Below are positions 32,832 to 49,084 of a stretch of DNA of 64,000 nt, piece after piece. The notes under the pieces are model-generated. The model was not told the DNA's origin, did no database searches, and worked only from the letters and a program-made list of their open reading frames with translations. Every line of letters starts with the position of its first letter. Within the stretch, counting starts at the first letter, position 1. The position numbers and the translations under genes were made by a program. Source of the stretch: Macrostomum lignano (Eukaryota); contig NIVC01002498.1 of assembly GCA_002269645.1 (NCBI GenBank), positions 62,001-126,000 of the forward strand, in the 5' to 3' direction.

Positions 32832-33422
32832 CTAACGCTCGATCGATTGGAAGTGTCGGGCGCGTCCGCCTCGGGCAATGAAGATTCTGCCCATTGACTT
32901 CAGTGTCGTATTGGAAGCATAGAATGCGTCGTCAGTTAGAATATTGATTCGCCTTGTCGACATGAAATGCCGGTAGAGCGCAGCTCGGATACAAATCAAC
33001 GTGGCTGGAGCAAAGTATTCGCCATTCCTCTTGCGAAGTGAGCCATAGAAGTATCGCAATAGACTGTCGATCTCGCGCGGTGTAGAAGTCGCCAAATCAC
33101 GCTGAACTGACGGATGGTTCTCCATGAAGCTCTGCAACTTACCGACATAATATTCGGTAGCCTTTGTCACACTTTTACTAGCAGCGGTGTCCTCGATTTC
33201 GGAAACGAGCTGTTCCAATTCAAGTAGTTCAGCTTCTTCGTCAGGTATCTTCTTGAAAAGTGCCTCCAGAAGATCCTCCTCTTCTCGATCAATTGCCGAC
33301 TCCGGTAGATTATCAGGCTCGTTCAGAATTTCGTCAATCTCATTGGTGGACAAGCCGGAAATCATTTCGTTCGGAAATTTGCTCAGATTCAGAAGTCTGA
33401 CTTTAGTTGGTGGCTCAGCCAT
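32832..33422 (-). pseudogene. Crypton/DUF3504-like (tyrosine recombinase N-terminal part) ORF, 196 aa, truncated before the catalytic domain
   Basis: EIDSLLRYFYGSLRKRNGEYFAPATLICIRAALYRHF matches the L..fy..vRk.dG..Y.p.sl..ir.al.Ryl block of Crypton-A/ZMYM/KCTD1/QRICH1 DUF3504 proteins. No catalytic R-H-R-Y region was found nearby. Confidence 0.7.
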
Positions 33423-33722
33423 ATTCTCTCACAAGTGATTTTAATTTAACAGCTTCTTATTCCCTTCTTCGCAACACTCAATCAACTTGCGTGCCTTTCA
33501 CGCATTTTTGTCTATGGTTAAGACAAATTAACTGAGCGTGCATCTAACGCGCCATCTAAAGTATTAAGCCAACGTAATACAATGCAACTCATACATCGAT
33601 TTTTTCGTAAAATCGATGTATGAATCCTACAATATTTTGGAGAGCGGCAGTGCTTAAACTGCAGTTGTGTTGTTTATACGGGTTTTGTAAAGATTTGCTA
33701 TTCAAAGGTTCCAAGGTATCGC

Positions 33723-34272
33723 AGTAGTATGAGTTTATGCAACTCTGCCGCACTTGCACTGCGGAGATAGGCGGTAATGTAAAAGGATAGGAGGGTGTAA
33801 AAGAGCCAGCTGAGATAGCCAATGGAAATAAGGGGCGTGGGGTGGGTGTGATTGGCTGGGCGGCGCGGGTGGTGAAACGCTTATGCAACTCTGCCGCACT
33901 GGGAGGGGCAGGTAGCAAAGCAAAGCTAAGAATTGGAAGGTTTTTGGAATAGCAGAGTAAACAAATTAAAGCAAGGTAGGCGTGGCGTGGAAACTTCCAC
34001 CTCAATTTTGTGCCTGGCCTATGCAACTCCTCACCATCCTCCAATGTGCTTATTGTATAGCAATGCCTATGCAACTCTAAGCGGAGAGAGGCTCCGCTCT
34101 TGAGTGTCTGCCTCTGGCGCGACTGGCATTGATAATAAATGGGTAATAAACTTTGTAACGGGTGCGGGGGCTTGAGTGGAAAGGGTAGGGTTTGGAGTGG
34201 AGGTGAGGTTGTTGGTGGGCTCTAAAACAGTTGTTCAACTCTGCCGCACTTTCACTGTGCAGGGACAGAGAG
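33723..34272 (+). repeat. Left terminal inverted repeat of the Polinton (~550 bp)
   Basis: Imperfect reverse complement of 48256-48837; contains CCAAT and GC-box-like motifs and repeated CAACTCTGCCGCACT. Confidence 0.92.
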
Positions 34273-34684
34273 GTGAGCTCTAAAACAGTTGTTCAACTCT
34301 GCCGCACTTTCACTGTGCAGGGACAGAGAGGTGAGCTCTAAAACAGTTGTTCAACTCTGCCGCACTTTCACTGTGCAGGGACAGAGAGGTGAGCTCTAAA
34401 ACAGTTGTTCAACTCTGCCGCACTTTCACTGTGCAGGGACAGAGAGGTGAGCTCTAAAACAGTTGTTCAACTCTGCCGCACTTTCACTGTGCAGGGACAG
34501 AGAGGTGAGCTCTAAAACAGTTGTTCAACTCTGCCGCACTTTCACTGTGCAGGGACAGAGAGGTGAGCTCTAAAACAGTTGTTCAACTCTGCCGCACTTT
34601 CACTGTGCAGGGACAGAGAGGTGAGCTCTAAAACAGTTGTTCAACTCTGCCGCACTTTAATGTGCAGGGACAGAGAGGTGGGCT
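34218..34684 (+). repeat. 58-bp tandem array (8 copies) at the inner end of the left TIR
   Basis: Unit GAGCTCTAAAACAGTTGTTCAACTCTGCCGCACTTTCACTGTGCAGGGACAGAGAGGT; period 58; no spacers. Confidence 0.95.
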
Positions 34685-34831
34685 CAAGGCGCACTGGCAT
34701 TGTTAATAAATGAGCAATAAACTTTGTAACGGGTTGTGTGGCTGATGCCGACGAGCAGCCGCTGCTTGATGCCGAATAAGCAAAAAAGAAGTGGGTGCTC
34801 ATTCTGACACCCACCCCACTCCGCTTTGAGG

Positions 34832-34840
34832 GTATATAAG
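34832..34840 (+). promoter_or_regulatory. Candidate TATA box upstream of the PC4-like gene
   Basis: GTATATAAG ~90 bp upstream of the ATG at 34924; the same 9-mer occurs at 41795. Confidence 0.4.
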
Positions 34841-34923
34841 CCCCCGATTTTTAAATTCAACGGTAAATCTATTTTTTTCTTGAATTCGATTTCACAAGTT
34901 TTCGAAGTGATTTTGTGTGAACT

Positions 34924-35655
34924 ATGGATATTAGTGAAGGTTACAGAGTGCAGGTGCAAGAATTCGAAGGCCAGAAATACATCGCGATCAGGAAGTTTTA
35001 CCGACATGGCAGCACAGCAAGCCTCAAGCCTGGTGTTCCTGGTTTCAACTTGAATGTGCAGCAGTGGACGAAGCTAAAGGAGTTAAAGCGCTCCCTGGTG
35101 AAGTCGGCTCTGAACAACGAGCTCAAGGTCATCAAGCTGGGCTTCGACAAATTTGTTCAAGTCAAGGATGGCCTCATCTGGCTGAAGCGGCTGCCTGAGG
35201 ACTGCTGTGATGAATTTATGAAGCGCAACACCGTGCCGCTGTCTCCGAGGCTCTGGCAGAAGCTGTGGCAGACTTCGGACTGGATAGACCAGCAGCTATC
35301 AGAGCCCTACCAAGGTGCGGGGGCGAAGTACGAGCTGAGCTCATCCGAAGATGAGGACGAAGACGCCACCCTCATACTGCCGGTCAAGACTGAGGCTGCT
35401 GAAGGCGAGGAGGAGGTCGGCTCACCATCGGAGCTGACAACCGACATCGAGGCTGTGACTTCCACACCTTTGGCCAGAGCCGGCACATCGACTGGGAACA
35501 TCCCGGCGGAGGACACGGACCTACAGCAGGATCCGGTGTGGTACCGATTCCGGGCTCATGCCGCTGAGGTGGAGAACAATCGGAAGCGGAAACTGCCATA
35601 TCCTCTGCGCAGGCAGGAGACAATGAAGGTGTCTAAGCTGCGTTTTGAAGACTGA
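34924..35655 (+). CDS. Polinton PC4-like ssDNA-binding protein (probably two tandem PC4 domains plus an acidic tail)
   Basis: YRVQVQEFEGQKYIAIRKFY...LKPGVPGFNLNVQQWTKLK matches the PC4 domain. Intact 243-aa ORF; AATAAA at ~35943. Confidence 0.85.
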   Translation: MDISEGYRVQVQEFEGQKYIAIRKFYRHGSTASLKPGVPGFNLNVQQWTKLKELKRSLVKSALNNELKVIKLGFDKFVQVKDGLIWLKRLPEDCCDEFMKRNTVPLSPRLWQKLWQTSDWIDQQLSEPYQGAGAKYELSSSEDEDEDATLILPVKTEAAEGEEEVGSPSELTTDIEAVTSTPLARAGTSTGNIPAEDTDLQQDPVWYRFRAHAAEVENNRKRKLPYPLRRQETMKVSKLRFED

Positions 35656-36024
35656 GCTGGAGGTTGGATGAGACTGATGAGACTCAAAGGATAATTCAGT
35701 TTGGTTTGCCTTTGTCTAATTTTATTCAGCTAAGTTAAGTTTTGACAATTGTCGTAACCGTTTAGTCTTATTTATTCAGGTGTTAACAAACCAAGTTTAT
35801 ACTTAAATGCATGCAATTTATACTTATTTGCACTACTCAGTGTTACTATTTCCTGCAATCTTCTTTTCAAGATCACCAACTGTTCGCAGTCCCTAACTTA
35901 AAAAAAATATAATAAGTGTACGCTGTATGAGTTTAATATTGGAATAAAACCTGTCTTTTAAAACGCCAATCGTTGCTCTTAAGAAAAACATACCTGTGTA
36001 CATCTGGTTCTTTTTCATTTGAGA

Positions 36025-37091
36025 ATGGAAAATATTTACTTTGACCCACAACAGCCGGCTAGTTTTTCTAGTGCTTCCAAACTGTTGAATGAAGTTAGGA
36101 GAAGAGGAGATCGCAAATCCACTAAGTGCATAGAACAGTGGCTCAGTGAGCAGCCAGTGCACACCCTACACAAGCCAGCTAGAAGGCGATATCCAAGGGC
36201 CCCAATCATAGTGCGGGCTATCGATGATCAGTGGGAACTTGACTTGGTAGAAATGATTCCATTCGCAAAGTATAATAAAGGCTACAAATATATTCTTACA
36301 TGTATTGACGTACTGTCAAAGTGTGCTTGGGCCAAGGCACTGAAAAATAAAACTGCTACAGAAGTGAAGTCAGCATTCGAGAGCATACTGAGAAGTTCAA
36401 AGCGCCAGCCACGCACAGTTCGCACAGATCAGGGGAAGGAATTTATCAACTCCACTTTCCGTCAATACTGCATTGACAGAGGGATTCTGGCTTTCCCAAC
36501 TAACAGCGAGCAGAAGGCGGCTGTCATTGAGCGATGGAATCGGACTCTGAAAAGTAGAATGTGGCGCTACTTCACCTACAAGAGCACACTGCACTGGCTT
36601 GATGTGCTGCCTAAGCTGGTAAAATCTACAACAATACCTATCACAGAAGCATCAAAATGGCACCCACTAGTGTCTGCAAAGAGAATGAATCTGAAGTGTG
36701 GATGAACCTGTACGACGGAAAAGCAGTCGAGACTCTAGAAAAATTAAGGAAGCCTAAATTCGCTGAAAACCAGTCAGTGAGAATTTCCAATGCTCCACGG
36801 CTATTCAAAAAGGGATACAAAGCGAGCTGGAGTGAGGAAGTGTACACCGTGGTGAGCAGAGCCCCAAAACATTATCCCTACATGTACAAGATTAAAGACA
36901 TGCGGGGGGAAGAGATTCGAGGACTCTTCCATGAGCACGAGCTGCAGGCTGTCCCGGACTCACAGCGGCTGTATGTGATTGAGAAGATCCTGAAAACGGA
37001 GAAGCGGAAGGGAAAAATTCGCTATCTGGTGAAGTGGGCCGGCTACGATTCGACTGGCTGGGTGGATGAAAAAGACTTAAGAAAGGTTTAG
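36025..37091 (+). CDS. Polinton retroviral-like (rve) integrase with C-terminal chromodomain; one frameshift at ~36627
   Basis: DDE motifs WELDLVEM, VRTDQGKEF and VIERWNRTLK; the second frame continues YNNTYHRSIKMAP and ends in YVIEKILK...YLVKWAGYD (chromodomain). Confidence 0.93.
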
Positions 37092-37119
37092 CTTTGGCAC
37101 ATCCCTCATCATGTAGTTT

Positions 37120-37936
37120 ATGATTATAATGCGAACTATTTTGATTAACAGTGAGCATGCTGAAGGTACTCCTAGTGACTTTAATTTTTACCTGTCTTCA
37201 CCTATTTACTTGGATCGAAATGTGGACTATGAGGCAGGTCTGGCTGAAATCCATCTGCCTGCTGCATGGTTCAATGTTGACGAGCCTTACTGCTTCACTG
37301 TCTCAGATGGAAGAGAGCATGAGGCCCTGGTTCTTCAACCCGGACGCTTTGCTAGAGTGGAGGAGCTGGTGGAGCGCCTGAATGAGCTGCTGGCCAACTC
37401 TGATTCGCTGTTCTTTGATGCGATGAGTGACAGGGAGTCTGAGATGGAGGCTGATGAGTCCGGCCTGATGGGGCGTAGTGGCAACAGGGAATTCGGTATG
37501 AAGTTCGAAATCCGCAACTCACGAACTGTGGTGCACAACAACACGCGAGAGCAGAGCTGTTTCTCCCATCCAGCAAAATTCTGCATTGGCTGGGATTTGG
37601 AAACCAGGCTGTGAAAATCCAGCCAGGGAGCCGCGTGTCCGAGCATTGCATTGGCTGTCCGCGCACCAGCTTAATCAATGTACACTGCAGTGTCGTTGAG
37701 TCAACTAATTGCAACTGGGGCTCCTTGTTGAGAACAGTTGGAATGAAAGCTGGCATTGAATGGGGCAACTATCAAACAAAAATATTTAAGAAAACAATAT
37801 TCTTCCCGATTCAACGAATCAGTCTTCTTCACAGCATTCGAGTTCAGCTGCGGGACATCTATGGTTGCCCACTGATTGCCAGACTCACAGCCCTGTTCTG
37901 CTCACAGTTCAGATTCGGGAGAAACGCATTCAATGA
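37120..37936 (+). CDS. Minor capsid protein (penton-like, single jelly-roll); frameshifted
   Basis: N-terminal DFNFYLSSPIYLD...YEAGLAEIHLPAAWFNV and C-terminal LINVHCSVVE...LLRTV...SIRVQLRDIYG are typical of Polinton minor capsid proteins. Confidence 0.75.
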
Positions 37937-38319
37937 ACTACCAGCAGCTAATCCAGCAATATTCGGGGGTGAGGACAGGACACGAAAAGCCTGCACTCTA
38001 TGGCTGTGGGAGCTTTCCGGGATCATGACATACCAGCCTCCTCCAGCGGCTACATCATTATCCTCAACGCTTAGCAATGTCAGGCGCAAAAGAAATACTG
38101 AAGCAAGTCCGAAACGATTGAAGAAGAAGAAGCGCACCCGAAAGGCAACTGGTGGCGATCGCCCAATAAGAGGTCAATGGAAGAAAGCCGAGCAAGGCTA
38201 GTAGGAAAAAGCTTAAGAATAGGAAGACGAAAGCAAAGAAGAATAGAGCAGGCGGAGGAAAGCGAAAGCAAAAAGTCAGCAAGAAAACTGTGAAACGCGT
38301 GCTCGACTCTCTGTCATAG
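37933..38319 (+). CDS. Small Lys/Arg-rich putative virion core protein; frameshifted
   Basis: Pieces MNYQQLIQQYSG...LYGCGS, LAMSGAKEILKQV and KKLKNRKTKAKKNRAGGGKRKQKVSKKTVKRVLDSLS*; lies between mCP and MCP. Confidence 0.5.
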
Positions 38320-38321
38320 AC

Positions 38322-39595
38322 ATGGCTTACGGATTCAATCCCAGACTTGATTTATTTAAAACGCCCGTTTTACAAACCTGCATTGAAAAAGCTACTTATG
38401 TTGATATTCACCCAGTTAATTCCATTACTGCAAACTCCCCCATTGAATTTGACTGCCACCAATCTGCCGATGAATACACAGATCTGCTTAATTCTTTTCT
38501 TTATATTCGCTGCCGCCTTGTGAGACTGGATGGGGGTTTGCTGAGGGAGGATGTTCGAGATGGAGATGGCATCATCACCGAGCGCAGAGACAGTGATGTG
38601 CACCCAGAAAACTTTGTTCTGTCTACAGCCTTCTCAGATGTAATTGTGAGCATTAACCAGCGAGTGGTGTCTGGTGGAGACCAACTCTATCCCTACCATG
38701 CGTACTTCAAAGCACTAATGAGCTCATCTGATGCCCAGCAACTAAAACTTTACCCAGCTGGCTTCCTGGAGCCGGACTCTGCAGCTGAAGAGCACACGGA
38801 GAGCCACAGGGAATCCCGATGGATGGAGTATGCGGGGCCCCTCTTCAGCGATGTTTTCCAGTGCCCAGTGTTTCTGCTAAGCAATCTGCACTTGCACATC
38901 AAACTGGTCCCAGCGATGGGGCCTTTGCCATCAGAACCCCGAATGTAAACAACGCGGCTTATCGCATGGAAATCTCTCACAGCATTCTGCATCTTCGCCG
39001 AGTCAAAGTGGTGCCCACATCAGCCTGGCTCACGAGCAGGGGCTGACAAACCAAAATGCACTGTATCCCATCGAGCGAACTGAAATGCAGAACTTCATCC
39101 TACCCCAGGGCATTCAATCTAAAAACATTGAAGGATTCACTCATGGAAAATTGCCGAAGTTCATCATGCTGGCCTTCGTGAGCCACCGAGCATTCAACGG
39201 TCATCATCACGCGAGTCCGTTCCAGTTCCAGAGCTTCAACCTCAGCCGGTTGGCTCTAAAGAAAGGTGGGAGACCGTGTGCCACGGCGCCTTCACACCTG
39301 AAAACAATTCCTTTGTAAGAGAATACTTGCACTACCTGAAAAGCTGTCAATCTGCAAGCAATTCGGTCCCGTGGATCCCCTACCAGCTCTTCTCCAACAA
39401 CACACGGTGTTTGCATTCGATCTCACACCAGAGAGAGCGGCTCTGTGGTACGGACAGAAGGAGGGCAACCTGCGGCTGGAGATTCGCTTCCGACAGGCTC
39501 TGGACGAAACGGTGTCCCTGATCGCTCTGTGCCTGTATGACTCGTTGATTGAGGTCACCAAGCACCGGGAGCTTTTGCTGGACTATTCCTCTTAA
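38322..39595 (+). CDS. Major capsid protein (double jelly-roll); several frameshifts
   Basis: RLDLFKTPVLQTCIE...SPIEFD...YTDLLNSFLYIR at the N-terminus; G.LPKFIMLAFV..AFNG..HASPFQF, VFAFDLTP and GNLRLEIRF...LCLYDSLIEVTKHR at the C-terminus. Confidence 0.9.
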
Positions 39596-39600
39596 TTGGC

Positions 39601-40109
39601 ATGGACGCAATTCAACTACTTAATCTCGCCAGAAAATTTTTGTCTTGCCGAAAATTTCTCATCATTACTTTACATTCACGCTATAAAAATGTTTTGCCTT
39701 TGAGTCTAAAAAGAAAATATCGATCAATTTCCTTTGAAAATAAGTTTGTTTTTGTTCTACTACAGCACAATGGTTCATTTGGTCATTGGGTGGTGTGCTA
39801 TGTTGGACAAGGAAATTGCATTGAGTGTTCAACTCCCTCGGCTGGGAACCTGAAATTTTATCTGTGGTTTATAATTTGTTTCGAGAGATTAAAACAACTG
39901 GCTTTTGGCTCCGAAGCAATATAAACAGATTTCAATGTGCTAACTCTAATAAATGCGGAATGTTTTGCATCTATTTTGCTTATCAAAAGTTTCTGTTCAA
40001 TCGGTCATTTGAGGGGATTTTGAAGCATTTGCATGCTAATGAAAAAAATCATTTGAATGATAGAATCTTACAGAGGTTTGAAGCCAACTTAAGAAAAAGA
40101 TGTGCGTGA
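39601..40109 (+). CDS. Adenain-like cysteine protease (maturation protease); frameshift at ~39830
   Basis: GHWV (catalytic His), FNSLG, and RFQCANSNKCGMFCIYF (Q...S..CG.FC, catalytic Cys). Confidence 0.85.
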
Positions 40110-40132
40110 TTTCTAATATTTATGCATTAGAC

Positions 40133-40786
40133 ATGGAAGAAAAGCGAGTTTGCTACGATATCCGCCTCAGGCAGGGAAGCTGCATGATTGTCTGCGGGCC
40201 CACCAATGCAGGAAAAACAACCTTTGTCAAACACCTGATCCAGTACAGAGACGTCATGTTTGATGTGAAGCCTGGCAGAGTTCTGTGGTACTATGGGATC
40301 TCACAGGCAGGCCATGCAGAACTGAGCAGCCTAGGTGTGCAGCTGCGCCAGGGATTTCCCACCAACATCGAGGCAGCACTTAGGCCCAATGACCTGGTTG
40401 TTTTCGATGACTTAATAGAGGAAACTTCAAACTCTGCTTCAATGCGAAATTTTTTCACAGGAATCGCACATCACTTGCCGTGCTTCTTGGTGATGCTGAC
40501 TCAGAATATATTTTTTAAGGGAAAAGAGTCGCGAACAATGAGCTTGAATGTAATGTACTTAGCTATCTTGAAAAACCCCAGAGACCAGCTGCAGATTGCA
40601 GCACTGGGCAGGCAGTGCTTTACAGAGAAGCCCGGCTTTCTGCTGTCAGTGTTCAAGCACGTGACCGCGCAGAACAGGGGAGCCTACCTGTTCCTAGACT
40701 TTCACCCATCAACTCCCGATGAGCTGCGAGTGCGGCCAGAATTTGCCCAACCAGCGACCCCATCTTGTATTTGCTTAAGAAAGTGA
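40133..40786 (+). CDS. A32/FtsK-like genome packaging ATPase
   Basis: Walker A GPTNAGKTT, Walker B LVVFDDL, plus MLTQN, RTMSLN, LKNPRD and YLFLDFHP motifs. Confidence 0.92.
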   Translation: MEEKRVCYDIRLRQGSCMIVCGPTNAGKTTFVKHLIQYRDVMFDVKPGRVLWYYGISQAGHAELSSLGVQLRQGFPTNIEAALRPNDLVVFDDLIEETSNSASMRNFFTGIAHHLPCFLVMLTQNIFFKGKESRTMSLNVMYLAILKNPRDQLQIAALGRQCFTEKPGFLLSVFKHVTAQNRGAYLFLDFHPSTPDELRVRPEFAQPATPSCICLRK

Positions 40787-40820
40787 AGCTTGTTTTTTAT
40801 CAGCTATTGTTTTCATCGCT

Positions 40821-41159
40821 ATGGAAGTGCTTGATTCACATGCAAGTCTTTTTGCGGTTCTTGCGTCACCTAAATATACCGTGCGCTTCAAGCGGCTGTT
40901 GATAAAAAATTGTCCAAAAGAAGTGCGTTATTTTCTTGTCGAGGCCTGCCATAATCTCTTACAAAACAATCTATCGTTTTCGCTCGATGAAAAAGCTGTT
41001 CTTGCAAAGTCAAAAGAGATAATTCGAAAAATTACTCACAAAAGAAGAAAGACAGACTTGTTGAAGGCTGGCTTCATTAAAATACTCCCGATTCTGCTTA
41101 AGCTGGTAAAGAAGAAGAAGCAAAATGAACAAATTTTCAGAAATGGTTCTGATTCCTAA
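40821..41159 (+). CDS. Conserved small basic Polinton protein of unknown function
   Basis: LVEACHNLLQNNLSF...KEIIRKIT...KAGFIKILPILL resembles the small ORF that commonly follows the Polinton ATPase; intact 112 aa. Confidence 0.65.
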   Translation: MEVLDSHASLFAVLASPKYTVRFKRLLIKNCPKEVRYFLVEACHNLLQNNLSFSLDEKAVLAKSKEIIRKITHKRRKTDLLKAGFIKILPILLKLVKKKKQNEQIFRNGSDS

Positions 41160-41802
41160 AGCAGAGTATGAGATGTTGATGCAGAATTTGAAGCCAAATG
41201 AGACTAGCACTGACGCTAACTTGAAGCAGGCTCAGAAGAAATGCGATGATATCTTGTATGCCGAAGATTGTCCAGAAGATGTGAAAACCACCATGTATCA
41301 AAGTGCAATGCAAAGTTTGCTGGCCAGACGCAAGCACGCTGGAAAAGAAGGAGCACGCAATACTGAAGCCAAGTTGATGAAAACAGAGACACCACAGATG
41401 AACACCTGGGATGAGAAGATCAGCAAGTCGGTGCCACAGAAATTCAAAACCAGGGCTCGCAGTCTATGGACGATCCTGTCCACCAATCCAGAGCTGATTC
41501 GAGTTTGTGAAAACGGGGAGGTGGAAATCACAGGCACGTCAATCCCTTCCTCAAACATACTGGACTTGATTCAGCACGCAGTGAGGGATTCGCCATGTGA
41601 GCGTGAACCAGTTGGCTGGAACGAGTTCATCGATTTGCTGCAGCAGAAAAAGCTTAATGTTCCGCTTTCCGCTGTTGGTAAATCAGTTAAAAAGAAAATG
41701 GCAACCAGCAGAGGGAGTGAACTGGAGAAAGAACAAGCGAGTCTAGTCAAGGGGTACGGGAGCAACACAGCCTGGCTGAAACTGCCGAAGAAAAGTATAT
41801 AA
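41125..41802 (+). CDS. Conserved Polinton protein of unknown function (225 aa)
   Basis: MVLIP N-terminus and GEVEITGTSIPSSNILDLI...PVGWNEF...NVPLSAVG block, typical of a recurrent Polinton ORF; intact. Confidence 0.7.
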   Translation: MNKFSEMVLIPKAEYEMLMQNLKPNETSTDANLKQAQKKCDDILYAEDCPEDVKTTMYQSAMQSLLARRKHAGKEGARNTEAKLMKTETPQMNTWDEKISKSVPQKFKTRARSLWTILSTNPELIRVCENGEVEITGTSIPSSNILDLIQHAVRDSPCEREPVGWNEFIDLLQQKKLNVPLSAVGKSVKKKMATSRGSELEKEQASLVKGYGSNTAWLKLPKKSI

Positions 41803-41803
41803 G
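41795..41803 (+). promoter_or_regulatory. Candidate TATA box upstream of the exonuclease-like/TBP-like module
   Basis: GTATATAAG ~45 bp upstream of the ATG at 41844. Confidence 0.35.
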
Positions 41804-41843
41804 AAGGGAAACTGACTCCGAAATTTCGAGGGAAAGCTGCATC

Positions 41844-42340
41844 ATGAACTACATTGACTTCCAAGGATTCCCGTGCAACAGCACAAGCAAAAATTTGTTG
41901 TGAAAGAGTTGGCAGTTGTTCAAGTCAGAGCGGGAAGCTACCGAATTGCTCACCATGTGTACGCACCTCCGTATCCATGGGAGAGAGTCTCCCTGACATG
42001 CGAGTTTGCTACAGACAGCTATCAAAGAGTCTGCACCAGTTTAAGTGGAGATGGAACCCGTCCGTACATGGAACTGCGGAAGACATTCTGGGATTGCCAG
42101 TGGTCCGATCTGGACAAATGGGGAAAGGAAGTCTATTTTCCTGACTGAGCTGCTTGGTAGACAGGTTTATAACCTAGAAGATTTGGGAGCACCCTCGATT
42201 GAAGATTCAGATACTGGCTGTGCAGTGAGAAATTCATTGCTGCACTACAGTTGGCTTAAGCCAAAGTTCTGCATCAACTTAAGAAGCGAGCAGTGTCCGT
42301 GGCACAGGGGCAGTGAAGTTGGCAGAAGATTTGGTGAAGA
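41844..42340 (+). CDS. DnaQ/DEDD-like exonuclease-fold Polinton protein; frameshifted
   Basis: MNYIDFQGF, FVVKELAVV, YAPPYPW and LLGRQVYNLEDLGAP pieces in successive frames; the 3' end is approximate. Confidence 0.55.
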
Positions 42341-42354
42341 AGTCAAGGATCGAA

Positions 42355-42938
42355 ATGAGTCCACCTGCAGCTACAGCCCTAAGAGTGACCAATCTGGTTG
42401 GCGGAGTGGATCTGAGACTGGATGGTGGCAGGGGCGCCCAGTGCCTCTACGGGAACTGGCTCTCAGCATGGCTCATGTGATCTACCGGCCCGTCTGGCCC
42501 CGGGTGCTCATCAAGCGGATGCGGAGTCCCAGAGTGACTCTGCTACTCTACCCTACTGGACAACTGAGCATCTGTGGCGCCAAGACCCACGCAGACGCCA
42601 AAAGGGCTGCCCGTCGCTTCGTGGCTATGCTGCATCGGAGAGTGCCGGCTCAACTGCTGCCTCCTCAAGACATTTGTGTTCGAATTAAAACTATTGCTGC
42701 TCATGGACGTTTTAAGCTCCAAAATGCGCTACCGCTTACTGAACTTGTTAAAGTTTTGCCCAAAGCCCAGTATGAACCAGAAACATTTTCAGCTTTAGTT
42801 TGTCAACTTAAGTATTGTAAATGCTTGCTTTTTCATAATGCTTCTTATATTCTAAGTGGGGCGAAATCTCTGCGTATGCTAAAATCCGACAGTTCTTCCC
42901 TGTTTCGCTCTGTTAACACACTTATGCAACTAAAATAA
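42355..42938 (+). CDS. TATA-binding protein (TBP)-like protein encoded by the Polinton; one frameshift at ~42435
   Basis: LRVTNLVGGVDL ~ LQNIVSTVNL; YRPVWPRVLIKRMRSPRVTLLLYPTGQLSICGAK...AKRAARRF ~ [34 protein letters not shown]...RLAARKY; QYEPETFSALV...CLLFHNASYILSGAKS ~ SYEPELFPGLI...LLIFVSGKVVLTGAK. Confidence 0.88.
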
Positions 42939-43280
42939 AGCACAAGAATAATCCGTCTTTAATCTTCCGACAAAATCTAACAGTAAAATTTTAATCTGTC
43001 TTGTTTACTATTTTTATTTTTTGGTTAGAAAAGATGCTAAAAAATTGTCAGCAAACTGCAACACAGCGAAAATTGATACTAATATTAAAAGAACATAGGA
43101 AAAGAAAGAAAATGAAAATGCTAACACTCATAAAAGTTAAGCAAGTTTTGAAAAAGCAGTTGCACATTAAAGAAAAGTACTATAGCATTTATGCGGACAA
43201 CATGTACATTGCGTTCCAAAAACCAAAATGCAAAGCTGAGCAAATGCTCAATTCAAAAGTACGCACTAGTCAAATGTATG

Positions 43281-46200
43281 TTATTGCATCCTCATTTGCT
43301 TGGGAGCCTGATCAGCAGCTAGTTGAGGTGCTTCTCGATTGTAACGGCGGCAGCTGTGGCGGCAGGGGTCTCTTAGAGCAAAGTGCCCATACGGAAGACT
43401 TTGGTTTGGGGAAGTCCACGCACGCTTGTCCTCCCATACAGTCAGGGCACGCTTCTGTTGCTCTAAAGTGACTACTCTGTGTCGTCGGCTAGCGATTCTG
43501 CGTGTCAAGACGCGAAGCTCCTTCAAACTGGCAAACGCCTGCATGTAGTCATCGTGTGTGATTTCTGCCCGCAGCACACTCTTCTGAACACCTTTGGCTG
43601 CCTTCTTCCCTCCAGACTCGGCCTTCATCGAGTATAGTTTTGGTCTCAAAAGGATCCATTCACGATGGGGTTGCCTGCAGATTCGTCCTTTATGCAGCCT
43701 AACTTGGCTTTTAGATCATCGGATCGGAATTGATGGTCGGCCGGGAAGTTTGAGGTATCTAGCAATCGCTGGCGAATGAGTTCTGGTAGAACAGCACTCT
43801 GAACATCGATGTTTTTAAAGCACAGAAAGAAGGAATCGGTGTCCCCACCGCATAGGGAAACTCCTTGTTGGAGAGCAGGATTCTCAAATGTTGGCTTTAG
43901 CTTTCCATAGTACAATCGGTACATCGCCAGCTTAGAGTCATCTAAAACACATTGACCAACGTAGATTGGGCGGTCAAGAGTGACTGAAGTCTTGAAAAAT
44001 TGAAAAACTACTAAGTCTTGAGTCACAATCGTAAAGTCCTTAAGATTCGGACGCGATGAATAGATTTCGGACTGCTCCTCGTTGTTAGAAATTCGAACAC
44101 TGAGCCTCTTCCGTACGTTTTCCATCGTTTTGCCGAACAGGGAGTTATTCTTCAGTTTGTAATAGTCTTTTTCGAATTCCGTTGTAGCCACTGAGCGCTT
44201 TTTGCTGTTTCTGTCAATGTAGGCTTGGAAAATTGCAGCTTGACAAAATCGAATAGCTCTTCGGACCTTTTTTAGTCGCATACCGTGACGCAAGTAGAAC
44301 TTCAAAATTCGGAAATGCACGCGCACGACGTAGGATTCCTTGTCATGACATGTGAGTAAAAGTTTCACACAGCCTTTGTACGGCTCGTTGCGAGTGTTCA
44401 ATTCGCCCCAAAGACGTTTCATGAATGGCGGAAACTCTTCGAGCTTAGGCGCGGCCTTCTCGGGGGCAAATGGCAAATCTTGTGTCTGCGTGTGGATTAC
44501 ATCTGGATATTCCAAATCAACCTCAAATAGGTAGCCAACTGGACCATCGTCATCCAATTTAAGTAGCTTCTCTTCTGTCCATTCACACAGTTCTTCTTCA
44601 CTAAGCCACTCAAAGTCACTGACGGGTCGTTTTTCGGACAGCGCTTGCCCGTAGAGATTATTCATGTCTACGGGGAGCAAAGAATTTGTCTCGGCATTAG
44701 AAGCTGCGCTTGATGAATCTGCACCATCTGACGACTGGTGACTGGTCCGGCAGTAACATGATGAACGTTCGTGAAGGTCATTCCTCCACGAATGCCAAGC
44801 TCAAAGAGTCTGTACTTCTCAGCATCGTCGAGCAACTGGAGCGGTGTTGGCGCGGATTTCAGCGCGGAATCAAATGATAGACCTGGTGTAGTAAAGTAGT
44901 GGGCTGGGTCAAGACCGTCATCATGGAGACTCAAACGGCGAAAGTTCTGAAAAACATCGGCAAGTTGACGGATGTCAAGCTGCAGGTAGGCAAGCATGTA
45001 GTCGTGCAAATTTTTTGCTTCGATCTGCTTCCAGGCTTTGCGCGCATGAGCATAGCTCTCCTCACTGCAAGCTGTCTTTGTCAGAGAGTTGAAAAACTCT
45101 TCTCTGCTCGGAAGTTCGGTCACTGCCAAATTCGCGGGGATTTGACGAAATCATAGGGAAAGACTCCCTTGATAGACAAAGTTTCATTAGTTAACTTTGG
45201 AAAGCAGCTTTTCATTTGCTGAGTGAATTTTCTGTCCTGGAGAGGTAAGTTGCGAATCAGTTTGTCTAGACCGCGTTTAAAAACTGGAATGAATCGAGGA
45301 ACTGCAGAGTGAAGAAAATTGTTTTCTTTTTGCCTTTCGGTAGAGTGATTTCGGCGATTGGGAAATCTACTCGAAGAGACATATAGCGTTCAGAAGTCTG
45401 AGGAATGACACTCAGCTTCCAGTTTTTCATATTTCCTAACGCTGTTGAAAACAGGAGGTGCATGTCATAATTTCGGAGATTATGGAAGAAAATCGGCAGA
45501 AATCTTCGGCGAAGTTGCGCTAATTTGTTACACCGTGAACATGCGGCGCCTTTGAATTTTCCAGTCAGATGATCATGGTCATAGTGCTTGTCATTAGTGT
45601 CAGTAAACTGTCGATCACAGTAATGACAGTTGGAGGATTCACTGAAGATTTGACTAGCAATAGTGTCTGCTTCAGCCGTTTGGTAGCTGTGCCTTCTGTT
45701 CCATTCATAGACTTCTCGAGCCACGCGTTCCAGCTCATGAAGAAACGTTTCCATACACTCCAATGGATTCGAACTGGAGACCAACTTCACCTGACCTTGA
45801 TCCTTGAGTGGTGGTCCCTTCATGCCTTCACGAGCAACGAGTAGAAATCCACCCGCTGCAGGCAGATGCTCGGTAATAAAGACGGTTTTGCCAGTTACCA
45901 TGCCCTCATCTGGTCTTGCTTGTACATGACTGCTGCTGCTGCTGCTGCTGCGTGTGCTGCAGACTTGCTCATTGTCGCTGACCTCCATTTCCTCAACCTT
46001 CTGATGCATGACCTCTCGAGTGTGGGGGCCTAGCGGAGAATTAAATGCTTCAATATCAGCATAGATGGCGAACGGTGCTTCAATAGTTTTGAAGTAGTTT
46101 TGAAAAGACAGCACGCTGCGCTTCTCAGTAGGAACTCGTTCCTTGACAGCAAACTCATTAGAGCGATAGCACTGCTCTCTGTGCTCACTTAGCTTCTGAT

Positions 46201-47112
46201 CAGTTACGAAAGAGCTCAAGCAGCGTTCACACCACTTTCTGTGGTAAAGACCGCTTTTACTGTTTAGTAGCCTATCAAGGCTCACAATTCCGCACCAGTG
46301 TTTATCCTCTTCATCCTTGTTAGCTGATTTGTTCAATAGTAGGAGAAGAACTACTTTGCGACTGCATGCGACTTCAACTCGTGGCTGCCTCAGCACACTG
46401 ACACCGTTACTGCTTGACCAAGAAAAAACTACAAAACATAACCTTGGGTTCAGTAATTCGATTCGATTTAGCTGGTTGAGTCCAACGGGTAAGGAAATTC
46501 CTGAAAGATTGATATCGTTCAACCAGTCCTTGTAAGTAGAAAACCTTTGAGGGTTTTTCCTCAAATTCTCATCACCGTGATGCAGCACTGCAAGGCAGGC
46601 ATACAAAAAACAATCAGAGCCAGTACTAGGAGGATTGATGACGGCTTTTTTTGCCTTCAGCAGAGGAGGTAATTCAAAATTGCTTGCGTGACCAGAGTAG
46701 AAGCGCAGTCTTTGACCAACCGCAATATTCAAGTCGATGCAGTTGACGCGCACAATCACCCAACCACTGCCATTTGTGTTCATCTTCTCAATGATGCCTT
46801 CGCAACCATCAATCTGCTGCTTCCACCAATCATCAAAGCAAGCGGCGTCATTGACAGGTTGCAAACGAGTGCTTACCCATCTTTCTTCCTGGTTCACCAC
46901 TTCACCAGCTTGGATTCTGTTCATTCGGATGCTCATTTTTAGCTGCGCTCTAACTAAAAGATTTGGATTCACCATCTTCTCGAATACAATTCGCTGTATT
47001 GCTTCCCTGCTCCGTCGGGCGAGTTCAAATGGGTCACATGGTGCATCGCTTGGCACGGAAATTCGATACACCACCAGGGTTTCGTTGTGCGCACTTGCTA
47101 CTTGCTGAATGT
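43281..47112 (-). CDS. Protein-primed family B DNA polymerase (pPolB), main exon, broken by about four single-base frameshifts
   Basis: N-terminal region with DCFLYAC/KHW, C2H2 finger (CERC..H..C), ExoI AIYADIE, endonuclease VII-like CHYC..DHDHLTG...C..CN, ExoII FHNLRNYD, FLDSFQF, KGVFPYD, DMNNLYG, KLKNNSLFGK, GDTDS, KDE, LRPKLYS, KGV and C-terminal EDKR...LPYGH. Confidence 0.96.
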
Positions 47113-47293
47113 CTAAAAAAAAATTAACAGCTTTGCTTATTTTCTGTTACTCAAAGGATGGTATTCCATGGTAATGAAATTTAGACTCAATAAGCACACT
47201 TAAATTGAATTTCTCGATTTTTAAATACAAAACTTCGAATGCACCCAGGAATTAAATAACTTAAGGCTGAAATTAAAAATGTTGTTGACTCAC

Positions 47294-48271
47294 GATAAGG
47301 ATTAATATTGCTGGCACCGTTGTTTTCGATCAAGCTGAGTTCCCTTCCTGCACTACCGCCGCCAGTGTCGCTTCCTGCACTACCACCACCGGTATCGCTT
47401 CCTGCACTGCCGCCGCCGGTGTCGCTTCCTGCACTGCCGCCGCCGGTGTCGCTTCCTGCACTGCCGCCGCCGGTATCGCTTCCTGCACTGCCGCCGCCGG
47501 TGTCGCTTCCTGCACTGCCACCGCCGGTGTCGCTTCCTGCACTGCCGCCGCCGGTGTCGCTTCCTGCACTGCCGCCGCCGGTGTCGCTTCCTGCACTGCC
47601 GCCGCCGGTGTCGCTTCCTGCACTGCCGCCGCCGGTATCGCTTCCTGCACTGCCGCCGCCGGTGTCGCTTCCTGAACTGCCACCGCCGGTATCGCTTCCT
47701 GCACTGCCACCGCCGGTATCGCTTCCTGCACTACCACCACCGGTATCGCTTCCTGCACTGCCGCCGCCGGTGTCGCTTCCTGCACTGCCGCCGCCGGTAT
47801 CGCTTCCTGCACTGCCACCGCCGGTGTCGCTTCCTGCACTGCCACCACCGGTGTCGCTTCCTGCACTGCCGCCGCCGGTATCGCTTCCTGCACTGCCACC
47901 ACCGGTGTCGCTTCCTGCACTGCCGCCGCCGGTGTCGCTTCCTGCACTGCCGCCGCCGGTGTCGCTTCCTGCACTGCCGCCGCCGGTGTCGCTTCCTGCA
48001 CTGCCACCGCCGGTGTCGCTTCCTGCACTGCCGCCGCCGGTGTCGCTTCCTGCACTACCACCGCCGGTGTCGATCAGACTGGAACCGCTACTAGCACAAT
48101 CTTGCTTAGTGTTGTTGGTGTCGTTTCAGAGAGCCTATCGAAATCACTCTCCGAGTAGTCTGCCCCGGAACTTGATTCAGACCAATTATCTTCGCTCTCT
48201 GATTCTGACCAGCAGTCACAATCGGACTCTGAAAACTCGCTTGAGTCCTGCTCTGCTCTCTGTCCCTGCAC
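47294..48271 (-). CDS. Putative upstream exon of pPolB encoding a Ser/acidic segment and ~27 DTGGGSAGS repeats
   Basis: Frame reads (DTGGGSAGS)n...NGASNINPY and ends at a phase-1 consensus donor C|GTGAGT (47293). This matches the phase-1 acceptor TTTTTTTTTAG|AC at 47113. One frameshift near 48135; no ATG was found. Confidence 0.6.
47335..48070. repeat. 27-bp GC-rich tandem repeat (~27 copies) inside the Polinton
   Basis: Unit GCTTCCTGCACTGCCGCCGCCGGTGTC; most variation falls at third codon positions of the minus-strand DTGGGSAGS frame. Confidence 0.95.
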
Positions 48272-48837
48272 AGTGAAAGTGCGGCAGAGTTGAACAACTG
48301 TTTTTAGAGCTTATCAACCTCGCCTCCATTTCAAAACCCCACCCTTTCCACTCAAGCCCCGCACCCGTTACAAAGTTTATTGCCCATTTATTATCAATCC
48401 CAGTGCGCCAGAGGCAGACACTCAAGAACAAAGACAAGAACCTCTCTCTTATCTATTTCACTCCGCACTGACAAATAGTGCGGCAGAGTTGCATAGGCAT
48501 GCTATAGGATAAGCATAGTGGGGACGCCGAGGAGTTGCAATGGCCAGGCACAAATTGAGGTGGACGTTTCCACGCTATGCCTACCTTGTTTTTAATTTGT
48601 TTACTCTGCTATTCCAAAAACCTTCCAATTCTTTGCTTTGCTACCTGCCTCCCCCAGTGCGGCAGAGTTGCATTAAGCGTTTCACCACCCGCGCCGCCCA
48701 GCCAATCGCACCCACCCCACGCCCCCTTATTTCCATTGGCTATCTCAGCTGGCTCTTTTTACGCCCTCCTATCCTTTTTACATTACCGCCTATCTCCGCA
48801 GTGCAAGTGCGGCAGAGTTGCATAAACTCATACTACT
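48256..48837 (-). repeat. Right terminal inverted repeat of the Polinton (~580 bp)
   Basis: Reverse complement of the left TIR, identical over the outer ~55 bp and more divergent inward. Confidence 0.92.
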
Positions 48838-49084
48838 TATCGCCATAGACAATTCGGTGGGAAAGTTCCGCGCTTAGTACGAAAGTACGAGATTGTACGA
48901 TATTGCACCATGACTTACGTGGCTCTGATATTCGATTATTGCCATAGACGATTTCATCTTGGCAAGTTCATCCAGGTCTTGGTCAGTCAAAAGCCGTATA
49001 TGTGGACACTGAGCCAGAAAAGTATCAAAATCACTTCCACCTCCAGCACTGGCAGTTCCGTGAACTGAGAGCCATCTAATTCTT

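Follow-up and report, generated by a model that had tools for sequence, protein, structure and literature searches.

How a Polinton controls the expression of its genes, and whether it switches to making virus particles, are questions on which the present locus bears. The window, 64,000 nt of Macrostomum lignano DNA (contig NIVC01002498.1), contains one such element, and a first-pass annotation made from the sequence had proposed that it carries a divergent TATA-binding protein (TBP) gene of its own. The element spans nt 33723–48837 (15.1 kb) and has long terminal inverted repeats (33723–34278, + strand, starting with AGTAGTA, and 48250–48837, − strand; 85% identical to each other), bordered at both ends by a 6-bp target duplication, TATCGC (33717–33722 and 48838–48843). 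It also has a protein-primed PolB (DNA_pol_B_2 in a sister copy), a retroviral-type integrase (rve in the window copy), an adenovirus-type protease (Peptidase_C5, over the cut-off in a sister copy) and a P-loop ATPase (Pox_A32, just E 0.012), the characteristic set of a Polinton. No RNA polymerase gene was detected in its 15 kb. At its inner end the left repeat continues into a tandem array of a 58-nt unit (eight copies, 34214–34685), which contains AACTCTGCCGCACT, a sequence found again in the termini. Near the right end (47344–48072) there are 27 copies of a GC-rich unit of 27 nt. The rest of the window is largely tandem repeat; in the host flank, pieces at 113–538 and 32832–33422 (both − strand) match DPPIV_N (E 9e-13) and, below the cut-off, QRICH1.

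The type B polymerase gene (43281–46975, − strand; E 7e-14 for DNA_pol_B_2 in the sister copy) faces the other genes, and all genes and sites given below are on the + strand. A PC4-like gene of the coactivator/single-stranded DNA-binding family (34924–35655; Pfam PF02229, E 2.4e-9) is followed by an integrase with a chromodomain (36025–37091; rve E 2.7e-13, Chromo E 5.5e-6), a putative minor capsid gene, so labelled from position and size (37120 to approximately 37930), a small Lys/Arg-rich ORF that may encode a core protein (37933 to approximately 38320), and a putative major capsid gene (38322–39595; about 427 aa in sister copies and conserved in all related elements). The putative capsid genes have no match in Pfam, NCBIfam, PHROGs or PDB sequences; their ORFs are conserved, and their size and place fit Polinton jelly-roll capsid genes. 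Next are the protease (40109 at its end, starting at 39601), a P-loop ATPase identified by alignment and taken from its context to be of the packaging type (40100–40786), the conserved ORFs X (112 aa, 40821–41159) and Y (225 aa, 41125–41802), a DEDD/Maelstrom-like gene (41844–42688; disrupted in this copy, its sister copies encoding about 280 aa) and the TBP gene (42355–42938), whose stop codon overlaps an AATAAA polyadenylation-type signal (42934–42939). A search of the genome with the Pox_A32 profile gave no match. The majority of the element's genes are frameshifted in the window copy, among them the integrase, putative minor capsid, basic ORF and protease genes. An ORF of 145 aa between the TBP gene and the polymerase end (43034–43471) is found in this subfamily only and may be spurious. 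A PC4-like gene also adjoins TBP-bearing Polintons among metagenome relatives (L129, L135), and its product may bind single-stranded DNA or serve as a coactivator. The Maelstrom name is a lead, with an atlas score of 0.88 to Maelstrom and 0.92 to unnamed clusters, and no Maelstrom-like neighbour was seen in families 3–4 or in the metagenome loci. As a piRNA-pathway look-alike in a mobile element, the product could, speculatively, be a counter-silencing factor.

The TBP gene begins with an ATG at 42355 and ends with a stop at 42936–42938, its coding sequence being split over two frames; sister copies encode a core-only protein of 187–196 aa. The downstream piece alone (42429–42935) gave two matches to Pfam PF00352 (E 1.9e-20; 72.9 bits, cut-off 22.9) and matched 35 solved TBP sequences at E ≤ 0.001, in agreement with the TBP-like ORF of about 190 aa described in the first-pass annotation. 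The single frameshift reported there near 42435 is present but lies nearer to 42,440. It is private to the window copy, being absent from 19 of 19 other copies compared, and represents either decay or a sequencing error; the gene is broken here and the full protein cannot be made from it. In 2.2 kb, the window copy differs from its relatives by 13 private substitutions and 2 deletions. A natural, unbroken sister copy (L002) is predicted to fold as a TBP saddle (pLDDT 95.8, from an alignment that included canonical TBPs), and the model has 44 Foldseek matches at E ≤ 0.001, listed as TBPs with TM values of about 0.8. The fold had been named as the point on which the proposal could fail, and it is that of TBP. 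Identity to the host TBP is 28%, and in two quick trees with long branches the element TBPs lie far from both host TBP and TRF2. Judged by profile matches and the predicted structure, the ORF is a true two-repeat TBP in a Polinton. The host TBP and a TRF2-like gene (L021–L032) were each found on three contigs, with intronless cores.

The gene is not confined to the window. A DNA search of the genome returned 146 candidates, of which 40 were scored and were all 88–100% identical, while the Pfam TBP profile returned 330, with 150 scored: six rows are host TBP, six are TRF2-like, and the remainder are of the element type as far as inspected. At 19 of 20 loci fetched with 10 kb of surrounding DNA, integrase, capsid, ATPase or polymerase genes adjoin the TBP gene. 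The TBP frame is unbroken in 54 of 63 distinct loci, a set chosen by best score and so biased toward intact copies, some of which may be allelic. Ratios of dN/dS were 0.07–0.51 in the first half of the gene (36 pairs of nine copies) and 0.06–0.29 in the second (21 of the 36 pairs being unsaturated). The comparisons indicate that the gene is old and under purifying selection, at many loci, where a recent host copy in a single insertion had been the other outcome foreseen. A second family, about 35% identical (37 matches among 150 scored in a separate search), has another gene order and the same Maelstrom-like/TBP unit.

Ten loci of other ATPase classes were also fetched. Eight carry a TBP-like frame when searched with a custom-built TBP profile (three of these belong to one subfamily), and the two without a match look decayed; no TBP-less Polinton control was found among the ten. 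One of these TBPs passes the Pfam cut-off and two others tested fall below it, and a family-3 protein is predicted to fold as TBP (pLDDT 92.9, TM about 0.7). A quick tree, which carries long-branch warnings, separates 26 of 27 Polinton rows from host TBP with a support of 87. The earlier statement that TBP lies outside the core Polinton gene set fits the literature searched but not this genome, where TBP-like genes are present in every well-preserved Polinton locus fetched. At least four Polinton lineages coexist here, and the many identical-score copies that several of them have point to recent spread. One family-3 element (L213, 6475–7851, − strand) encodes TBP together with a deoxynucleoside kinase (Pfam dNK, E 6.5e-24) in a single open frame, which may be a real fusion or the product of a frameshift; in the sister element L217 they appear in overlapping separate frames. 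An ATG is missing where the first strand begins in the family-3 TBP frames (L214, 1645–2190; L211, 3042–3596; L217), pointing to initiation at another codon, to splicing or to a frameshift.

The TBP gene is also the site of an overlap and of a recombination joint. In family 1, the Ser/Gly-rich tail of the Maelstrom-like protein overlaps the first 107–111 TBP codons in another frame, and in family 2 the overlap covers the first 129 codons. Random synonymous recoding kept the overlapping frame open in 1.4–4.9% of trials for family 1 and 0.2–0.9% for family 2, the copies used not being independent. About 340–360 nt into the TBP gene, at the end of the overlap, identity between copies falls from about 95% to 50–70%. 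Elements with near-identical left arms have polymerases that are mostly 46–58% identical, each accompanied by its own TBP C-terminal half, making the TBP gene a joint where replication modules are exchanged. All swapped modules seen carried TBP. Since a wide search yielded short divergent TBPs, metagenomes were scanned as well; of 113 relatives, 80 were kept and 44 examined, the remainder being weaker. Integrase, capsid, protease or ATPase genes adjoin TBP in 26 of the 44, several of which probably come from related samples. Scans of IMG/VR with TBP, capsid and ATPase queries gave no relatives.

The DNA face of the element TBP has changed. The residue numbers used here, those of yeast TBP, were mapped by alignment. 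Residues N69, V71, L114, E186, E188, F190, L205 and F207 are kept, and F99, F116, V122, T124, Q158, N159, V161, P191, R196 and V203 are changed. Both C-terminal intercalating Phe residues (F190, F207) are thus retained and the second Asn is lost (N159 is Thr), as first read from the sequence. The replacement of the two N-terminal Phe residues by Trp and Tyr was right for F116, which is Tyr; a Trp in place of F99 is uncertain, because by register that position is Pro and the Trp sits one residue earlier. With two of four intercalating Phe and one of two central Asn, the protein departs from the canonical TATA-binding set, and without F99 and F116 its affinity for DNA might be reduced in general. 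In protists, TBPs with lost Phe residues function without TATA boxes (PMC4180970). The element protein has a 6-residue insertion after strand 1, a shorter loop in repeat 2 and no N-terminal extension. Positions 122, 124, 158, 159, 161, 191 and 203 are polar or altered, mostly in the same way in families 1 and 2; S122, C124, K158, T159 and T161 are identical between these families, which are only about 35% alike. Across ten Polinton-type rows, N159, V161 and T124 are changed and E188 is kept in all ten. In repeat 2, the acidic EPE loop, which in canonical TBP binds TFIIB, is invariant in the aligned sequences of 16 of 16 rows, host included.

A search for matching DNA words in the element gave two classes of site. 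The sequence suggested earlier as the target of the element TBP, GTATATAAG, was rejected as probably wrong: it occurs just twice in the element (34832 and 41795) and is an ordinary consensus TATA box, solely ahead of the PC4 and Maelstrom-like genes, which are probably early. The first of these boxes, TATATAAG (34833–34840), is 91 nt upstream of the PC4 start and is likely read by the host TBP. The second class is represented by CTTAAGAA, found six times on the coding strand of 12.5 kb and never on the other, against 0.33 expected and at most two in 100 simulations. It lies 47 nt upstream of the integrase ATG (35978–35985), within the final integrase codons 44 nt upstream of the following gene (37076–37083), 110 nt upstream of the putative major capsid ATG (38212–38219), 45 nt upstream of the ATPase ATG at 40133 (40088–40095), 47 nt upstream of ORF X (40774–40781) and 77 nt upstream of the TBP ATG (42278–42285). 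A related site, TTTAAGAA (37785–37792), is 148 nt upstream of the small basic ORF, and TATATAAGAA (41796–41805), 46–48 nt upstream of the Maelstrom-like gene, combines a consensus TATA box with an overlapping TATAAGAA site. The combined word YWTAAGAA occurs 6–8 times per element on the coding strand (0.3–0.8 expected) and precedes the integrase, both putative capsid genes, the basic ORF, the ATPase, ORF X, the Maelstrom-like gene and TBP, mostly 35–83 nt upstream of the ATG and in two cases at 107–149 nt. There is no full site before the protease or ORF Y, although an incomplete one, CTTAAGCT, precedes the latter. The protease gene itself contains a consensus TATAAAAA (39682–39689), which is present in four related copies as well, with no long ORF downstream.

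In family 2, YWTAAGAA is found at matching gene positions, read in different frames, and Leu-Arg pairs at the sites are encoded as TTA-AGA (3–4 per family-1 element against 13–21 other pairs, with 2–4% expected). PC4 has a consensus TATA box upstream in families 1 and 2 alike, as have the polymerase and TBP in family 2; no TATA box was found before the polymerase in the window copy, and no initiator signal stood out. The words also differ with the TBP lineage. Six family-1/2 elements have 6–8 YWTAAGAA and no TATAAGY, five family-3 elements have 5–9 TATAAGY and 0–1 YWTAAGAA, and the single family-4 element has six TATAAAT and neither of the others, the words having been picked by eye from the same sequences in which they were counted. 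In 15 regions of metagenome relatives, NNTAAGA[AG] was counted 113 times in sense and 23 times in antisense orientation, with 56 expected; four of the 15 exceed all 100 simulations, and there is no excess in L128, L155 or L169.

V122 and V161 lie near TATA positions 5–6, and YWTAAGAA differs from TATAAAAG at positions 1, 2 and 6. According to PMC1636458, the C-terminal repeat of TBP reads the 5' half of the box, P191 enforces T at position 1, and base 2 is contacted by residues 194, 203 and 205; a G at position 6 was not selected by the wild-type protein, although there is a cavity able to accommodate it. The element TBP is without P191 and its word often begins with C; some relatives retain P191 alongside a C-starting word.

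Because each lineage pairs its own TBP with its own word, the element TBP likely steers host Pol II to the element's integration and putative particle genes and so switches them on. On the reading that we consider probable, it reads late promoters in a lineage-specific manner and works through the TFIIB and Pol II of the host. Early, host TBP would read the consensus TATA boxes of PC4 and of the Maelstrom-like/TBP unit. Late, the changed DNA face of the core-only TBP would recognise the element's own TATA variant, YWTAAGAA, and bring in host TFIIB and Pol II at the genes for integrase, putative capsid proteins, packaging and TBP, one of the promoters so fired being ahead of the TBP gene itself; the binding, start sites, timing and TFIIB recruitment are what we infer. 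The altered specificity proposed in the first-pass annotation thus gains indirect support from the promoter words, though its target was probably misjudged. None of the datasets listed as containing the stretch is recorded as RNA; contigs of four runs guessed to be RNA span it, including the TBP gene, and are silent on transcription, its level and its starts. A wider form of the proposal, in which every Polinton lineage has its own TBP and word, and TBP is an old, near-core gene of much of the animal Polintons that runs private early and late programmes through matched TBP-promoter pairs with a position-6 G, is put forward more tentatively, as slightly less likely than not.

The positions of upstream ATGs do not discriminate between this reading and its competitors. 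In the first competing model, which we regard as unlikely, host TBP itself reads the sites as weak TATA variants, and the element TBP is a decoy or competitor that soaks up TFIIB, NC2, Mot1 or TAF1, whether to dampen host transcription or to free host TBP. Host TBP may indeed read the sites, because its cavity can take a position-6 G and PDB structures show host-type TBP in complex with G(−26) and T(−30) variants; host-type TBP tolerates such single deviations from TATA. The loss of R196 and of two of the four intercalating Phe, with the acidic TFIIB loop retained, would also suit a decoy, as would the basic helix 2 that the family-1 protein retains. This model, however, leaves unexplained why the substituted residues S122, C124, K158, T159 and T161 should be fixed on the DNA face, and why three TBP lineages in one nucleus should go with three mutually exclusive words.

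A second model, in our estimation improbable, treats the words as TAAG-type initiators for the RNA polymerase of a helper virus, with TBP as an accessory. YWTAAGAA, TATAAGY, CGTAAGAA and CATAAGAG have TAAG in common, and baculovirus late transcription begins in TAAG (PMC9786725, in the part consulted). The family-4 word TATAAAT lacks TAAG, however, the bases outside TAAG follow the TBP lineage, and no helper virus is indicated; a LEF-8 search of the genome was blank, as was its control, and carries no weight either way. About equally improbable is a role away from promoters, in which bending of the element's DNA by TBP assists its replication, packaging or integration, and the words are bound by a different factor of the element or the host. 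Movement of the TBP C-terminal half with the polymerase module, and the single frame with a nucleoside kinase in one family-3 element, would fit such a role, but the words are strand-specific, TATA-shaped 8-mers placed 35–83 nt upstream of most ATGs. Lastly, recent retroposition of host TBP or TRF2 into a copy with no function, which an intronless gene broken in the window copy might suggest, can practically be discarded, because identity to host TBP (itself intronless in its core) is low and the gene is under purifying selection, the high identity, single insertion and neutral decay of such a copy all being absent, with 54 of 63 loci unbroken and both trees placing the gene far from either host protein.

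The reading of the element TBP as a late-promoter reader can be set against known systems. Polintons, Mavericks and adintoviruses have the same inverted termini, 6-bp duplication, pPolB, integrase-chromodomain, ATPase and protease (PMC8502044). The occurrence of TBP in a Polinton-like element has a precedent: in the parts consulted of Starrett et al. 2021 it appears for one such element, solely as a figure-legend label, while the main text does not contain the word promoter and gives no TBP function or range, and the one supplement searched has no TBP match (PMC8502044). In contrast to those elements, as far as described there, TBP is here fixed across families and paired with promoter words. 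Neither TBP nor TATA nor TFIID is mentioned in the main text of PMC11131425, PMC8097293 or 10.64898/2026.06.19.733378. The openly accessible papers searched describe neither the pairing of TBP lineage with word inside one genome nor the overlap or the recombination joint.

Cellular TBP (PF00352) shares the two-repeat saddle (TM about 0.8), the element protein differing in being core-only and 28% identical to that of the host. The TBP mimics of beta- and gamma-herpesviruses (KSHV ORF24, EBV BcRF1, HCMV UL87) are likewise virus-coded proteins with a TBP fold, and act, as is proposed here with another word, at a modified TATA word (TATT) before structural or late genes (PMC6541308). Use of host Pol II would be shared by the element TBP; the mimics contact Pol II themselves and depend on five further viral proteins. 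The element TBP is a bare core of about 190 aa with a TFIIB loop, unlike the six-protein complex with its Pol II-binding extension, and the likeness is just one of proposed function. The TBP-like proteins of large nucleocytoplasmic DNA viruses, which bring their own RNA polymerase, share the fold among BFVD matches (TM 0.6–0.7) at 8–20% identity. TRF2/TLF is likewise an animal TBP relative with lost Phe residues, but has lost three and binds no TATA (PMC4180970), whereas the element TBP keeps both C-terminal Phe. The element TBP does not show the three-Phe loss, and the host TRF2-like gene (L027–L032) does not group with it.

The element TBPs explain many of the divergent 'TBP-like' entries in animal datasets. 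If the proposed function is correct, a late switch consisting of a single protein and a defined target of 8 bp would make the Polinton switch to particles testable, and a 15-kb element would have reached a minimal version of the TBP strategy of herpesviruses and giant viruses. The natural TBP-word pairs would show a reprogramming of TBP specificity known mainly from laboratory mutants (TBPm3), and private, matched TBP-promoter pairs would mean that co-resident families are transcriptionally insulated from one another and from the host. Such pairs would amount to a naturally occurring collection of mutually orthogonal TBP-TATA combinations, and would supply the so far missing switch for the timing of particle production by Polintons.
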